From the NCBI GenBank assembly GCA_016188825.1, contig JACPHA010000017.1:271-64270 (forward strand): DNA of 64,000 bases, given 5' to 3'. The notes below the pieces were generated by a model. It had not been told where the DNA came from and made no database searches. It worked only from the letters and a program-made list of their open reading frames with translations. This document shows, one piece after another, positions 24,740-29,071 of this stretch. The position numbers and the translations under genes are program-made. Position 1 is the stretch's first letter; every line of letters starts with the position of its first letter. This DNA comes from Candidatus Pacearchaeota archaeon (lineage in GTDB: Archaea > Nanobdellota > Nanobdellia > Pacearchaeales > GW2011-AR1).

Positions 24740-25651
24740 TTAAATCTTAAAGTTAGGATACTCAGATGGCTTCAGTATTTCATCTCTTTTTGATTGTTTA
24801 TATTTTTTAATAGTATAATCTCTTATTCTTCCAGGCACAAGAGCCAAAGGAAGTAAATATGGACGAGTAATCGAAGTTCCGAGAAGAATCCCCATAGCTA
24901 TCGCAGAGGCTCCCATTGCTAAGTACTTAACTCCATCGTTAATTGAGTAATGTAACCATCTTGTTTCAAATTGTGCGTCTGGATCGTGAGTAAGAAGTTT
25001 ATCAGTCAATATTTCAACAACCCTTTCGTGCATCGCATGTTCCGCTTGGTATTTTTCTAATTCTGGCAAATCTTCCTTAATAAAAGTATTTACAAAGTTT
25101 CTTCCAGTTTCAGCACGATACCGAAATATAACATAGTGCAATGCTTCATGAAATGTTATAGACTTAGTTTCTGGCTGAGTTCTGTCATTTGGAATTTCTA
25201 TTATGCCTTCATATTCAGGATATTGCTTAAACTTTTCTTCAATATCTTCTTGTAATTTTTCATCTAAAGGTTTATGATTCTCTTTTACAACTATCTTCTT
25301 ATTCGAAATTTTAGTCACGCAATGTGCCGCTAGAAAATATTTATCATGTAATCTTCTTTTTGTTGGCCTCAGAAAATCAAAAGGCATAAAAGAGGTTCTA
25401 AATCTCCACATAAAAGGATATTTTGGTTCGCGGGGAACAAGCTTAGGTCTTTTCTCATCAGCTGAATCTTTCACAGCCCTGTTAAAAGAGTTTCTATCTT
25501 CGAAGTAATCACCAGCTTCTTCAATATGATCTACAAAAGAATCATAATAGGTTTCTAAATCTTTTTCAGTTACTTTGGGTCTAACACCAAACGTAGATAA
25601 ATCTAATAATACGTTATCTAATTTTATTTTTCCTTGTGATATTTTTATCAT
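24740..25651 (-). CDS. HExxH-motif protein with C-terminal TM helices (putative membrane Zn-metallopeptidase-like)
   Basis: SITFHEALHYV (HExxH) with a downstream EHAMHE. Hydrophobic C-terminal segment YLAMGASAIAMGILLGTSI...LLPLALVP. ATGA overlap with the upstream NTase gene. Confidence 0.5.
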   Translation of the reverse strand: MIKISQGKIKLDNVLLDLSTFGVRPKVTEKDLETYYDSFVDHIEEAGDYFEDRNSFNRAVKDSADEKRPKLVPREPKYPFMWRFRTSFMPFDFLRPTKRRLHDKYFLAAHCVTKISNKKIVVKENHKPLDEKLQEDIEEKFKQYPEYEGIIEIPNDRTQPETKSITFHEALHYVIFRYRAETGRNFVNTFIKEDLPELEKYQAEHAMHERVVEILTDKLLTHDPDAQFETRWLHYSINDGVKYLAMGASAIAMGILLGTSITRPYLLPLALVPGRIRDYTIKKYKQSKRDEILKPSEYPNFKI

Positions 25652-26331
25652 TTTCTTCTCCTAGCAAAATCCGCCATTGATATGGCATTTCTTAAATAAT
25701 GCCAACCGCCATATGAATTTTTGGCTTTAAATAAAAAACTGTCTTTTGGTTGCTTAAATTCTTCATCAAATACATAATCTTTGTTTATGCTATATTTTCC
25801 ATTTGTTCTGCTTACCATTCCTCTTTGTTCTAATAAACCCAATACTCTTTGATATTCTTCTCTCAATATTCTCTGAGATTCATCAGATGCGAAAATCCTT
25901 TTAATAGGTTTTATTCTCCAAGGTCTTTGGAATCCGTATCCCCAAAGATAATTATTTAGAGGGTCTAAAACCTCAAACTTTTCAATTCCGGCTTTTCTAA
26001 ATCTAACTAACTCTCTTCTTACTAATTCTGATTTCATTCTATCAGAAATTTCCACACACTTCTCTTCGTTGTACAAATGAACCATTCTTAAATGACTATA
26101 TGGATGCCCCGTTTCAAATAATTGCAAAGTAAATGGATGAATCAAATGAACACTGATATTTGGTCGCATTTCTACTGGTTTATCTCTCGAATTCTGAGAA
26201 GTTAAAGCTACCAAATCAATATCAGAATCTTTTCTATAATATCCATTTACAAAAGAACCATAGATATAAAGTGCTTCGACAGAATTCTCTTTTAGCACTC
26301 TATCAACACATCTTGAAAGACTTTTGTCCAT
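25648..26331 (-). CDS. nucleotidyltransferase (Pol-beta superfamily minimal NTase) domain protein
   Basis: LYIYGSFVNGYYRKDSDIDLV shows the GS...DxD signature. Start set at the second ATG (26331), which is preceded by GGAGGT embedded in the last codons of the kinase gene. Confidence 0.7.
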   Translation of the reverse strand: MDKSLSRCVDRVLKENSVEALYIYGSFVNGYYRKDSDIDLVALTSQNSRDKPVEMRPNISVHLIHPFTLQLFETGHPYSHLRMVHLYNEEKCVEISDRMKSELVRRELVRFRKAGIEKFEVLDPLNNYLWGYGFQRPWRIKPIKRIFASDESQRILREEYQRVLGLLEQRGMVSRTNGKYSINKDYVFDEEFKQPKDSFLFKAKNSYGGWHYLRNAISMADFARRRK

Positions 26332-26335
26332 TTTG

Positions 26336-28105
26336 TTACCTCCTTCTAACATTTCTTAATTCACTTTGAATATTATGATATTGTTCTTCATTCCAAATAG
26401 AATCCCCTAAAACAGTTAAAGCAATTCCGCCTTTAGTAAACCTATGACCTACAAATCCTCCATAACTTCCGTAGACTCTTTTATTATGCGGTAGAATATA
26501 CTCTATTTCGCCCATTCTCTCTCCACCAGTATTAAAAATTAATTCAAATTTAGTGTTATATTTTGGTCCAGATTTTTTATAATCTCCTCCAGATGTTACT
26601 CTATTTTCATAAAGATCTTCTTCTTTTGGAGTTGTTTTTGGAGCGTTCTTAAAAGGAATTGTAGCAAATGCTAATGTTTTTCCAAGATCACTTTTAATTC
26701 CTTTAATAATAACTTGCCTCTCTAAAGTTCTACTAATTGCCTCTAAAATATTTTCAGTAGTTCTAACTCGCACATTAGTTCCTGCTGCTAAAAAACTTCT
26801 ATAATCAATAGAATCTCCTCGCCATCTCATAAACCAAGGTTTTCTAACTCCTTTAAAATCTGATCCACTAAAACTATAAAGCCTTTTTAAATCATCAAAT
26901 TGTTTTTTAGGAGGTTCTATTGGCTTTCCCGTTCTTTCCTTTAACTCGCTAACTTTATTGCCTCCTCCATGCCCTTCAGACTCCGCAACTTCCTGCACAA
27001 GATTTATCAATTCATCAACAGAACTATACCTTTTTGCAACATCTCTGGCCATTCCTTCCCTTAACACTGCGTCTAATCCTTTAAATTCTGGTTTAATTTC
27101 ATCTAAGTTTTCAAAATCTCCTTCTGGTTTTATTCCAGTTAACAATTCATAACATAAAGAAGACAACTGAAAAACGTCTGTTCTTTCATCTGCATTGCCT
27201 TCCCATTGTTCAGGAGCCATATATCTTGGAGTTCCCTTTATTTTATCTTTATCAGCAGTTAGGGATAACGCCAGAGAATTAAGCATCGATGTATCTGCAA
27301 ACTCTTTGCCTGCATATTTTAAATTCAAATCAACTAATTTTACATTTCCTTTCCCGTCTATTTTAAAATTGCTTGGTTTAACATCTCCCAAAACAATTCC
27401 TTTTTCGTGCAGTAATTTTATTGTTGAAGCAATTTGTAAAAAATATGACAAAGCATCTTTTGTGGGCATTCCTTTTTCCATTCTTTCTTCTAAACTATGC
27501 GGAATATATTCTGTTAAAAATCCCGGAGAATGTTCATCGTCAAAGTAAACAGCAAGAGCTGGAAAATGATCGTTGTCTATTTGCGACATTCTATTGATTA
27601 AATTTGTCTCTTCCTTTAGAAGTTTCAACAGCGATCTTGGCGCTTCGGGATTCAATGCTATAGCTCTTGCAAATGCTTCTTTGTTCAGTGTTTTATACGC
27701 AAATCTTGAATTTGTATGGAACTCCTCAACCAAAAGCACATCACAAAATCCACCACTGCCAATTTTATCAATTACCTTAAATCCTGCAACATAGCCTTCT
27801 AAACCTTCTGTTTGCGCTCCATCGCTACGCGTTTCCTGTAACGCAGGAATTTCTGCAGCTTTCCCTTCTTCAATTTTCCTTTCGGTTTGAATAATTTCCG
27901 CATTTGGTGCTGCCTCTATTCTATAATTTGAATCTTGTATCTTTTCTATATCTCCTTTCCGTCTTGCTTCTTCCATCTCTTTTAAAATTGCTATTTCATT
28001 TGCAGAAACTTCTTCTTTTTTTATCTTTCCCTCCAAATATCTCTCTTTTGTTCCCTCTCCTTGAACAACTTCTCTTTCCCTATAAACTATCTTTTCTTCT
28101 TCCAT
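26336..28105 (-). CDS. Ser/Thr protein kinase with charged N-terminal region and unassigned ~200-aa C-terminal domain
   Basis: Gly loop GSGGFCDV. Lys in FAYKTL. Catalytic loop LGDVKPSNFKI. GTPRYMAPEQ. The C-terminal 200 aa has no motif I recognise. Confidence 0.85.
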   Translation of the reverse strand: MEEEKIVYREREVVQGEGTKERYLEGKIKKEEVSANEIAILKEMEEARRKGDIEKIQDSNYRIEAAPNAEIIQTERKIEEGKAAEIPALQETRSDGAQTEGLEGYVAGFKVIDKIGSGGFCDVLLVEEFHTNSRFAYKTLNKEAFARAIALNPEAPRSLLKLLKEETNLINRMSQIDNDHFPALAVYFDDEHSPGFLTEYIPHSLEERMEKGMPTKDALSYFLQIASTIKLLHEKGIVLGDVKPSNFKIDGKGNVKLVDLNLKYAGKEFADTSMLNSLALSLTADKDKIKGTPRYMAPEQWEGNADERTDVFQLSSLCYELLTGIKPEGDFENLDEIKPEFKGLDAVLREGMARDVAKRYSSVDELINLVQEVAESEGHGGGNKVSELKERTGKPIEPPKKQFDDLKRLYSFSGSDFKGVRKPWFMRWRGDSIDYRSFLAAGTNVRVRTTENILEAISRTLERQVIIKGIKSDLGKTLAFATIPFKNAPKTTPKEEDLYENRVTSGGDYKKSGPKYNTKFELIFNTGGERMGEIEYILPHNKRVYGSYGGFVGHRFTKGGIALTVLGDSIWNEEQYHNIQSELRNVRRR

Positions 28106-28216
28106 TTTTTCTTTAAGGCATTTACATAAATATCTTTTTCTGTGTTAGAACATATAAAACACCTTTATAAATCTTTCTAATTTGTTACTTTAAAGTTAAT
28201 ATAAAATAATAAAATC

Positions 28217-29071
28217 TTATTTCCTAATCCAATAAACAACAGTTCCCTCACTATTCACCATGCTCTTGCAATATTCTTTCAATCCAGAAAAATCTCTTTT
28301 TGCTATTAATTCCAACCCAGTTTTAGAAAACAAAGCATTTGTTAATCCGTCTGTATAAACCAGCACAACATCTCCTTCCCGCAATTTAATTCTTCCCTTT
28401 CTTATGTAATTCTCTGCTTCGTCTTCGCCAGTTAAAACACCAAAAGAAAATTTCTGCTTGGGCTTGTTTCTAAACATTCTTCTCATTATTAATCTGCCTT
28501 CAGGATGACTCCACCATTTATGCCTTTTCCCAATGCTATCGAGAAAACCCTGAACAAACTCTGCTTTTAAAACAAGAGCCCAGCGGCTTTCATCTGTTTT
28601 CCAATATTCATCTTCTGTTCTGAATTTTACCACGCCAAAAACATCAACAACAGCAACACCGCAGGAAGCAATAAATTGGTACTCTAAAATATCGCCTTTT
28701 ACATGAGTAATTGCAGCAGTACATCCAGCTAAGTCATTTTTAAGCCAATCAGGATCCCGGATAACCACAATATTAAACTTTTTTATTTTTTTATTAGCTG
28801 AATATAAATCTCCGCTCTTTACCGCAATCTCCGCAGCTTTTTTTGCAATGCTCGGCTTTGGATAATTTTTAATCATTATTTTCTTGCCTTTTTCTGTATT
28901 CAAGTCAGGATAATTGTTCATAGGATCTCTGCTTACTCCATCTGCCACAGCCAAATATGCCCAATTTTTGCCTTCTCTTTTCTCAAACTTGTCTTCTGAA
29001 ACAGCCCCCCATTTTCTCTTTCTGTCTTCAAGCAAAGTAAATCCTCCCATCATATTATACCAAGTGCTCAA
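28217..29071 (-). CDS. PP2C/SpoIIE-like (PPM family) protein phosphatase, probable
   Basis: YLAVADGVSRD and VLVYTDGLTNALF resemble PPM motifs. The start is TTG or the downstream ATG-ATG. Confidence 0.55.
   Translation of the reverse strand: MSTWYNMMGGFTLLEDRKRKWGAVSEDKFEKREGKNWAYLAVADGVSRDPMNNYPDLNTEKGKKIMIKNYPKPSIAKKAAEIAVKSGDLYSANKKIKKFNIVVIRDPDWLKNDLAGCTAAITHVKGDILEYQFIASCGVAVVDVFGVVKFRTEDEYWKTDESRWALVLKAEFVQGFLDSIGKRHKWWSHPEGRLIMRRMFRNKPKQKFSFGVLTGEDEAENYIRKGRIKLREGDVVLVYTDGLTNALFSKTGLELIAKRDFSGLKEYCKSMVNSEGTVVYWIRK

Follow-up and report, generated by a model that had tools for sequence, protein, structure and literature searches.

The question raised by this locus is whether four neighbouring genes of a DPANN archaeon, for a putative phosphatase, a protein kinase, a nucleotidyltransferase (NTase) and a membrane protein with an HExxH motif, belong together as one unit and, if so, what that unit may do. 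The genes occupy positions 24740–29071 of a 64,000-nucleotide (nt) stretch of Candidatus Pacearchaeota contig JACPHA010000017.1 (hereafter, the window), and their products are HYV50_04985 to HYV50_05000 at NCBI. The original prediction, drawn from the DNA letters alone, described them as a coupled string and likened it to signalling-based, abortive-infection-like conflict systems. As far as gene order and homology can tell, comparison with related loci shows the string to be a lineage-specific variant of an accessory module that is restricted to DPANN archaea and has a two-gene core, formed by the NTase and by a domain, termed X here, which makes up the C-terminal part of the kinase.

The layout of the string was confirmed from its open reading frames (ORFs) and sequence. 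In a row on the minus strand, a PP2C-like gene is followed by the genes for the kinase (26336–28105, 589 amino acids, aa), the NTase (25648–26331, 227 aa) and the HExxH protein (24740–25651, 303 aa). The final kinase codons, AGA AGG AGG TAA, had been read as the Shine–Dalgarno sequence of the NTase gene, and a Shine–Dalgarno-like GGAGG (26339–26343) is indeed found within them, 7 nt ahead of the NTase ATG at 26331. The NTase TGA and the HExxH ATG overlap in an ATGA (25648–25651), again as predicted, with AGGAG at 25658–25662, and the PP2C-like gene does lie 111 nt upstream of the kinase gene (gap 28106–28216). Tight coupling is one part of the string hypothesis that stood. The recurring unit, however, is X plus NTase, not kinase plus NTase plus HExxH, and the latter combination, with the PP2C-like gene, was not syntenic in any other genome searched.

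An identical 589-aa kinase–X protein is present on five contigs, and the four that are shown come from four different sequencing runs. Since the same protein recurs across contigs from different runs, the fusion is not a chimera or another artefact of assembly.

An obligate X–NTase pair

The loci compared comprise 12 genome loci reached through the HExxH protein, 14 metagenome loci reached through the NTase and further contexts obtained by exact look-up, all annotated with profile hidden Markov models (HMMs) built from the module parts. The sample is small and consists of metagenome-assembled genomes (MAGs) and metagenome contigs.

By these profiles, X immediately precedes the NTase in the window as well as in loci L009, L013, L015, L023–L031, L033, L035, L036 and L040. 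The order X-then-NTase holds in all loci with enough upstream sequence to judge, and no NTase without X was seen among them. X is found without its partner in L039 (5249–6487), where a Y–X protein (a different head, Y, joined to X) has no NTase downstream, and in L040/L014 an intact Y–X stands beside an NTase broken into three to four frames. At the site that corresponds to the kinase/NTase junction, GAGGT is kept in L013, L015, L023, L025, L026 and L036. The pair is also found in reduced form: in the more distant NTase clades (L028, L029, L033, L035), a head-less X of 184–215 aa precedes the NTase and the HExxH gene is absent, the two proteins having typical toxin–antitoxin sizes, while in L009 and L034 Y–X and the NTase are followed by a different small gene. 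Taken as predictions from gene neighbourhoods, these arrangements show X and the NTase to be an obligate, translationally coupled pair.

In the window, X takes up the last ~195 residues of the kinase ORF (26339–26917). The original prediction had left the last ~200 aa of the kinase unassigned and had proposed profile and structure searches; residues ~381–589 have no Pfam match, and X has no match in PDB or Foldseek either. It is identified by its conserved position as the NTase partner. X is predicted to be an alpha/beta domain without an Rx4-6H motif, and a model of the Y–X protein (pLDDT 82) gave no significant Foldseek match (PDB, none at E < 0.01). An exhaustive HMMER search of 1.84e9 proteins retrieved only 29 representative clusters; the X-bearing proteins besides the query's own range from 101 to 582 aa, the strongest being ~390–460 aa long with X at the C-terminus. 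One tyrosine and one arginine are invariant in the family (Y435 and R445 in window numbering, within the SIDY and AGTNVRV motifs), with no obvious catalytic set. Judged from its conserved residues, X is a non-catalytic-looking NTase partner.

A recurrent module with interchangeable heads and tails

In Pace-, Woese- and Nanoarchaeota MAGs, the pair forms part of a recurrent operon with the order p309, an optional Y–TM protein (head Y with a membrane-module tail), Y–X, NTase and HExxH. The full operon is present in L013, L015, L026, L027, L031 and L040; it has a truncated HExxH gene in L025 and none in L024, and in L036 it is cut off within the NTase gene by the end of the contig. The p309 protein is a coiled-coil orphan with 81% mean column identity. 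According to the distribution of the parts, p309, the Y heads and the HExxH protein join X–NTase in one clade.

Because Y–X, Y–TM, kinase–TM (P0140, L037) and kinase–X (window only) all occur, the parts are combinatorial, with Y or a kinase as the head and X or a membrane module as the tail. The comparison shows the window to be a one-lineage variant in which a Hanks-type kinase takes the place of the Y head, and the PPM-like (PP2C-like) gene that of p309. Y is not a diverged kinase, as hhalign gave a probability of 0.2% for the two.

The families X, Y, p309 and HExxH have no match in Pfam, PADLOC, PHROGs, PDB or Foldseek. In PDB sequence and profile searches with the HExxH, NTase, Y–X, p309 and PP2C-like proteins, the MNT motif region of the NTase was the sole credible match region; matches to bS18 and to designed proteins also appeared and were put down to chance.

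The nucleotidyltransferase

The minimal GS..DxD signature of the Pol-beta superfamily, on which the NTase had been recognized, is well founded. The residues concerned (GS 25–26 and DID 37–39, that is, G25, S26, D37 and D39) do not vary among 23 homologues, and the protein passes the Pfam thresholds of Polbeta (38.8 bits vs 26.9), NTP_transf_2 (31.8 vs 21) and MTPAP-like_central (28.7 vs 27). Profile scores and family-invariant motif together place it in the Pol-beta superfamily as an MNT-like enzyme. Its family comprises 38 clusters, whose few named members come from DPANN or generic 'archaeon' MAGs.

Resemblance to known proteins (MntA, HalB, ANT and GLD-2, all below cut-off) is confined to the first ~60 residues. 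The C-terminal ~140 aa form a conserved orphan region with the motifs RPWR (136–139) and GWHY (209–212). MntA gave E = 8.5e-7 in NCBIfam (28.8 bits vs 60), with a PDB profile match to 5yep at E = 5e-4. HalB gave E = 1.1e-3 (18.6 bits vs 190), and its PDB entries 9dbh/9dbj E = 0.04–0.1, over the generic GS..DxD region only. In PADLOC a weak match to PDC-S09 was obtained (E = 3.7e-5), with PDC-M05A also among the nearest relatives. By sequence similarity, then, the nearest relatives of the NTase are toxin–antitoxin or defence NTases, namely MntA, HalB and PDC-S09/PDC-M05A.

Two identities had been named as outcomes that would undo the conflict hypothesis. Neither applies: an aminoglycoside enzyme is ruled out by the score of ANT(9) (26.5 bits vs 340), and a CCA-adding enzyme by the lack of any CCA-adding match in Pfam or NCBIfam. 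The NTase has no AbiEii/DUF1814 match at E <= 1 in Pfam or PADLOC, CD-NTase/CBASS models do not match the string proteins in Pfam, PADLOC or NCBIfam, and no HEPN match was found in the four genes with Pfam or PADLOC. Among IMG/VR viral contigs, no relative of the NTase, HExxH or PP2C-like protein was found, and in PHROGs the string proteins gave a generic kinase match and one weak match (E = 5e-5) to an NTase family of undefined role; these absences allow no inference on a defence role in either direction.

The kinase and its DPANN family

The complete catalytic core attributed to the kinase was borne out. Pfam Pkinase (PF00069) matches residues 110–372 with E = 2.9e-23 (83 bits vs a cut-off of 31.7), and the core, encoded at 26975–27802, carries the glycine-rich loop GSGGFC (116–121), AYK (136–138), GDVKPSN (240–246), DLN (259–261) and APE (297–299). 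It deviates in two respects, being a non-RD kinase (LGD replacing HRD) and having DLN in place of DFG. Both the profile threshold and the set of catalytic residues support its membership of the Hanks-type Ser/Thr kinases; in PHROGs the match is a generic one (phrog_2361).

Ahead of the core lies a Glu/Lys-rich extension of ~100 aa (27803–28105) that opens with an 'EEEKIVYRERE' motif common to a family of DPANN kinases. Members of this family are 40–48% identical to the window kinase and share the EEEIVYRE N-terminus, but have variable tails. The closest relative, P0134, is a complete ORF with no tail and an unrelated gene upstream; P0139, P0141 and P0143 have unrelated tails, and P0140 and two of the three tandem kinases in L037 have a membrane-module tail. 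This tail is homologous to those of the Y–TM proteins and to a free-standing 172-aa protein (L017, 7486–8004). The three tandem kinases of L037 span positions 1–5173, and a further kinase ending in a membrane module lies in L038 (548–2440). A second kinase–X fusion was sought and none was found outside the window, nor does a kinase core adjoin X at any other examined locus.

Defence-associated Hanks kinases (PADLOC PD-T4-6, MADS mad6, BREX PglW, MkoA) align with the window kinase at E = 1e-28 to 1e-9. These models cover its generic core alone (residues ~105–380), the scores are below the NCBIfam cut-offs (MAD6 49 bits vs 460, PglW 32 vs 990), and none of the partner genes of PD-T4-6, MADS, BREX or MkoA is present. 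On this sequence evidence, the true relatives of the window kinase are the DPANN kinases with the EEEIVYRE N-terminus, not the defence kinases.

The HExxH protein

The HEALH motif reported for the last protein of the string (residues 168–172, 25136–25150) is real, since H168, E169 and H172, together with Y173, R177, Y178 and E209, are kept without exception by 23 homologues that are 34–74% identical to the window protein. E209 is a family-conserved candidate for the third zinc ligand, so that the residues expected of a zincin are present. An AlphaFold2 model (pLDDT 85, pTM 0.86) places H168/E169/H172 and E209 on two predicted helices preceded by a beta-strand. The protein thus resembles gluzincin-type metallopeptidases (HExxH...E) in H168, E169, H172 and the downstream E209, but its family has no Pfam, PDB or Foldseek similarity to any of them: the best Foldseek values were E = 1.7 (PDB) and 0.81 (BFVD), no match was obtained in Pfam, NCBIfam, PADLOC, PHROGs or PDB sequence and profile searches, and none of the 23 family members has a Pfam peptidase match. 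The suggestion of a protease found no support in these searches beyond the invariant motif itself, and the protein is at most a candidate protease.

The C-terminal transmembrane helices that had been proposed turned out to be one moderate helix (a 19-mer at residues 243–261, Kyte–Doolittle 1.67) and a short second hydrophobic stretch. They probably form a hydrophobic hairpin at residues ~241–287 (24791–24931), followed by a basic conserved C-terminal tail; this profile favours an anchor of the hairpin type over a pair of complete membrane spans.

The family has 65 clusters at 90% identity, and its few named members again come from DPANN or generic 'archaeon' MAGs. The ATGA overlap with the NTase gene is also found in L013, L014, L015, L023, L025, L026 and L027, and the HExxH gene overlaps unrelated upstream genes in the same way in L011, L012 and L017. 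In L011 (3569–8909) and L012 (945–5611), the operon that it closes encodes an AAA_5 ATPase of the MoxR type, a VWA protein that has a HEADH motif of its own and an orphan of 199 aa; in L017 it closes a coiled-coil/membrane-module operon, and in L005, L016 and L018–L020 it is solitary.

Relics of former partners are left ahead of several intact HExxH genes. The last 40 aa of the NTase are preserved in L007 (7882–8001, equal to L021 2172–2291), and L016 (7972–8000) retains ~29 nt from the 3' end of the NTase gene. In L022, a 50-aa stub ORF begins with 21 aa that match the N-terminus of the window kinase, and its DNA (2405–2470) is 88% identical to window positions 28043–28108 over 66 nt. Because solitary copies retain such relics, the upstream partners turn over while HExxH persists. 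By this pattern of occurrence, the HExxH protein is separable: it is dispensable for the X–NTase pair, and the pair for HExxH.

The PP2C-like protein and the two transcription units

The label of the first gene as PP2C-like could be maintained in part. Candidate metal motifs of the PPM fold, read by eye, are present (ADGVS 37–41, TDGL 234–237, EGTVV 269–273), but all profile scores are below threshold: PP2C_2 gives 21.4 bits vs 24 (E = 2e-4) and SpoIIE 21.3 vs 25 (E = 2.9e-4), both over residues ~210–257 only, which is one C-terminal motif; Stp1 gives E = 0.014 (14.9 bits vs 230), and the best PDB match is the PPM-fold protein Lem3 (E = 0.13). NCBI labels the protein a hypothetical protein (HYV50_05000). 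On these motifs, the PP2C-like identity is a reasonable guess. No PP2C-like neighbour accompanies the module at any examined locus except the window, and the gene is, on present comparisons, without conserved linkage to the module.

The PP2C-like gene is a separate transcription unit. An exact copy of a BRE/TATA-like box, GAAAGATTTAWAWR, stands ahead of each of the two units on the minus strand: as GAAAGATTTAAAAG at 29075–29088 for the PP2C-like gene, and as a second exact copy, GAAAGATTTATAAA, at 28164–28177, within the 111-nt gap, for the kinase–X/NTase/HExxH operon. The motif occurs at 10 sites in the window (2419–62403) vs 2.2 expected from shuffles, including 20123–20136, 38716–38729, 56085–56098 and 62390–62403, and is probably a general promoter consensus of this genome. 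The PP2C-like ORF (28217–29071) is open back to a TTG at 29071. As the promoter box overlaps this TTG and NCBI calls a 278-aa protein from the ATG at 29053, the latter is the probable start (gene 28217–29053), and from the position of the box the transcript would begin near this ATG and be leaderless or near-leaderless. A scan for sigma-70 promoters and terminators was uninformative for an archaeon.

Mobility, genomic context and decay

In L013, the module is carried by a 6.2-kb integrated element (3594–9814) bounded by a 44-nt direct repeat, of which 31 nt are exact. The repeat copies (3594–3637 and 9771–9814) duplicate the 3' part of a tRNA-Ser(gct) gene (9763–9845). The element contains a tyrosine integrase gene (3722–4945), p309, Y–X, NTase, HExxH, a winged-helix regulator on the minus strand, a 93-aa ORF and nothing else, and the BRE/TATA-like motif described above precedes both the integrase gene and p309. 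An integrase together with a tRNA-duplicating repeat was found in L013 only. L028 has, at the flanks of its head-less X and NTase, part of an integrase (86% identical over 73 aa) and a gene for a similar winged-helix regulator; apart from this integrase fragment, the L013-type integrase is beside the module in no other fetched locus.

The window copy lies among core genes, with Kae1/TsaD and rpl7ae–rps28e–rpl24e to one side and gyrB and gyrA to the other. An integrase, a tRNA gene and flanking repeats were looked for around it, and none was found. The flanking L24e and GyrB genes are next to the module in no other locus, and the neighbour genes in L024, L027 and L031 differ from one another. 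The variable setting that the original prediction had proposed as a check is seen both in these differing flanks and in the att-flanked integrase element.

Several copies appear to be decaying. In L040 (5739–7289; L014 is 99.8% identical), the NTase is in three to four frame pieces and the HExxH gene has an internal deletion; the NTase is frameshifted in L036 (2637–3027), and HExxH is truncated in L025 (7681–8107). From these loci, the module is shown to be accessory, sometimes mobile, prone to apparent decay and context-variable.

A proposed toxin–antitoxin-like module under phospho-control

The reading favoured here is that of a mobile accessory, toxin–antitoxin-like NTase module, which in the window would have come under phospho-control. 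It is given a probability of about 0.4, which falls short of even odds. By analogy, the module would work most like a phospho-regulated NTase toxin–antitoxin system without being a member of one.

In the proposed mechanism, the NTase would be a potentially harmful enzyme that nucleotidylylates RNA or protein, and X would be its stoichiometric binder and neutraliser, or its regulator, with translational coupling keeping the two in balance. An asymmetry between the two suggests that it is the NTase that needs restraint: no NTase was seen to lack X, whereas the NTase beside X can be missing or broken. The head domain, Y or kinase, would supply the input. In the window variant this input would be phosphorylation: the fused kinase may act on the NTase or X and so hold the system in its off or its on state, and its phosphorylation may be undone by the PPM-like phosphatase. 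The HExxH membrane protein would be a separable downstream or processing component, recruited in one clade.

In AbiE and MenAT systems, the partner gene is upstream and the NTase gene downstream. The module resembles them in its two-gene core, in the position of the NTase downstream of a coupled partner and in carriage on mobile elements; in the module loci, the NTase depends on the partner and not the reverse. MenT/AbiEii-type NTase toxins are switched off by phosphorylation (PMC11375011), a control that the window kinase head and PPM-like gene would supply, and DPANN genomes are reported to be enriched in AbiE and NTase-containing candidate systems (PMC12988326). There are also differences. 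The module NTase is MNT-like with its own conserved C-terminal domain, not DUF1814; the partner is the orphan X, not AbiEi or MenA; and AbiE and MenAT have no counterpart to the p309, Y–TM and HExxH genes. Furthermore, phosphorylation in MenAT is an auto-phosphorylation induced by an antitoxin without kinase motifs, whereas in the window the partner is itself joined to a canonical Hanks kinase.

The closest N-terminal matches of the NTase lead to another group, HepT/MntA (type VII), PDC-M05 and PDC-S09, in which a small NTase likewise lies beside a partner. However, no HEPN is present in the string, the window NTase has 227 aa vs 139 aa for 5yep_A, and all scores are below cut-off. The module could be assigned to none of HepT/MntA, AbiE/MenAT, Hailong, CBASS, ANT/CCA enzymes, Bud32 or a peptidase family. 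The earlier remark that no named system fits is in agreement with these searches, as PADLOC gave only generic kinase-core matches and the weak PDC-S09 match, and Pfam and NCBIfam pointed to no named system either.

Several observations weigh against the toxin–antitoxin-like reading. The module bears no defining feature of a known toxin–antitoxin or defence system (no DUF1814/AbiEii, MntA and HalB below cut-off, no PADLOC system), it is absent from IMG/VR and its PHROGs matches are limited to the generic kinase and weak NTase ones. The window copy has rpl24e and gyrB as its neighbours, and neither an integrase nor a tRNA gene nor flanking repeats were found around it. The dependency of the NTase on X, and not the reverse, rests on few loci, and some of the apparent decay in L014/L040, L036, L025 and L039 may be MAG assembly error. 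The PP2C assignment is sub-threshold, and the PP2C–kinase link was seen once only. Finally, the NTase, p309 and HExxH proteins have 60–81% mean column identity, which would also suit a housekeeping role. As for the abortive-infection-like role first proposed, it is plausible in view of the att-flanked element in L013, the variable context and the repeated loss; the gene combination on which it was founded recurs in no other genome searched.

Alternative explanations

The high conservation of the NTase, HExxH and p309 proteins leads to the first alternative, in which the module would be a housekeeping, lineage-specific pathway of Pacearchaeota, such as RNA tailing or the control of a peptidase that processes membrane proteins, to which kinase and phosphatase were added and which has no conflict role. 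The location of the window copy among the ribosomal protein and gyrase genes agrees with it, as do the HExxH genes that are often solitary in ordinary chromosomal contexts (L018–L020) and the NTase score above the MTPAP-like palm threshold. A housekeeping pathway is, however, hard to reconcile with small and patchy families (29 to 65 clusters, out of collections that run to billions of proteins), with a copy on the att-flanked integrase element of L013, with repeated loss, pseudogenisation and domain swapping, and with flanking genes that differ between the examined loci. It is regarded as unlikely.

A second alternative, somewhat less likely again, reverses the polarity of the toxin–antitoxin-like reading. 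As in MntA–HepT, the NTase would nucleotidylylate X, for instance at the invariant Y435, and thereby keep a harmful X, Y–X or kinase–X inactive. The best matches of the NTase are MntA antitoxins, X has an invariant Tyr and Arg and no obvious catalytic set, MntA polyadenylylates its partner HepT (PMC7641770), and HalB primes synthesis on its own Tyr (PMC13434031). In L039 and L040, though, Y–X is whole where no working NTase accompanies it, which is unexpected if X is a toxin, and X itself is not HEPN-like, being a predicted alpha/beta domain with no Rx4-6H motif and no Pfam or PDB match. MNT–HEPN pairs usually have the MNT gene upstream, an order unlike that of the module.

It has also to be considered that the genes are not the cargo of a small integrative element but take part in its life cycle, through replication, maintenance or transfer, and that the window copy is a domesticated remnant. 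The element in L013 carries only an integrase, the module, a winged-helix regulator and the 93-aa ORF, with no recognisable replication gene, and MNT-type NTases are able to make DNA de novo, HalB being an example (PMC13434031). This explanation is improbable, given that the L013-type integrase is seen elsewhere only as the L028 fragment, that X–NTase pairs occur as lone two-gene units, and that PHROGs yielded only a generic kinase and a weak NTase match and IMG/VR no relative of the NTase, HExxH or PP2C-like protein.

A Hailong-like guard (mechanism described in PMC13434031), in which an oligonucleotide made constitutively by the NTase keeps the membrane HExxH protein inactive until loss of the product releases the effector, is suggested by the ~230-aa NTase directly before, and translationally coupled to, a membrane-anchored protein and by the weak NCBIfam and PDB matches to HalB, but it is very improbable, as these matches are far below cut-off and limited to the generic GS..DxD region, the obligate NTase partner is X and not HExxH, and the dispensable HExxH protein, which combines its motif with a C-terminal hairpin and lacks the tetrameric channel architecture of HalA, is solitary and intact after NTase loss in L016, L021 and L022, which cannot be squared with an effector that turns toxic once its guard is gone.

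Possible significance for DPANN conflict systems

A broader claim that goes with the toxin–antitoxin-like reading is more doubtful than that reading itself: that X–NTase, with its swappable heads and tails, p309 and HExxH, is an undescribed DPANN-specific conflict system of largely new folds, of which the window holds the only kinase/phosphatase-controlled version known. Defence or addiction systems that can be recognised are few in DPANN archaea, and those enriched in them are compact and NTase-based (PMC12988326); to this repertoire the module would add four protein families without profile or fold match (X, Y, p309 and the membrane-anchored HExxH protein). If the claim is true, the Y head and a protein kinase would do equivalent jobs in regulating an NTase, and the window would be a natural experiment. 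The exchange of kinase for Y would offer a handle on the mechanism, through phosphorylation of the NTase or of its partner. Surveys should seek X plus NTase, rather than kinase plus NTase plus HExxH.

Other genes of the window

The Kae1/TsaD gene (20651–21706) has no fused or adjacent Bud32, and the 589-aa kinase lies 5 kb away. The kinase is not the Bud32 of KEOPS: it scores 21.4 bits against the Bud32 equivalog model (cut-off 125), and has 589 aa and a full Hanks core. The TerY-P triad consists of vWA, PP2C and kinase genes; the vWA gene closest to the string is ~12 kb away.

Two further ORFs lie between the Kae1/TsaD gene and the string. One is a Cys-rich ORF of 396 aa (22110–23300) with an N-terminal hydrophobic segment and no Pfam match, and the other a 128-aa orphan (24112–24498) between rps28e and rpl24e that overlaps the rpl24e ORF. 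Finally, positions 6430–16390 hold a giant ORF of 2217 aa with beta-propeller, FG-GAP and PQQ-like repeats. After it come a Laminin_G_3 protein of 794 aa and a BatA/VWA protein, and the three together look like a cell-surface gene block.

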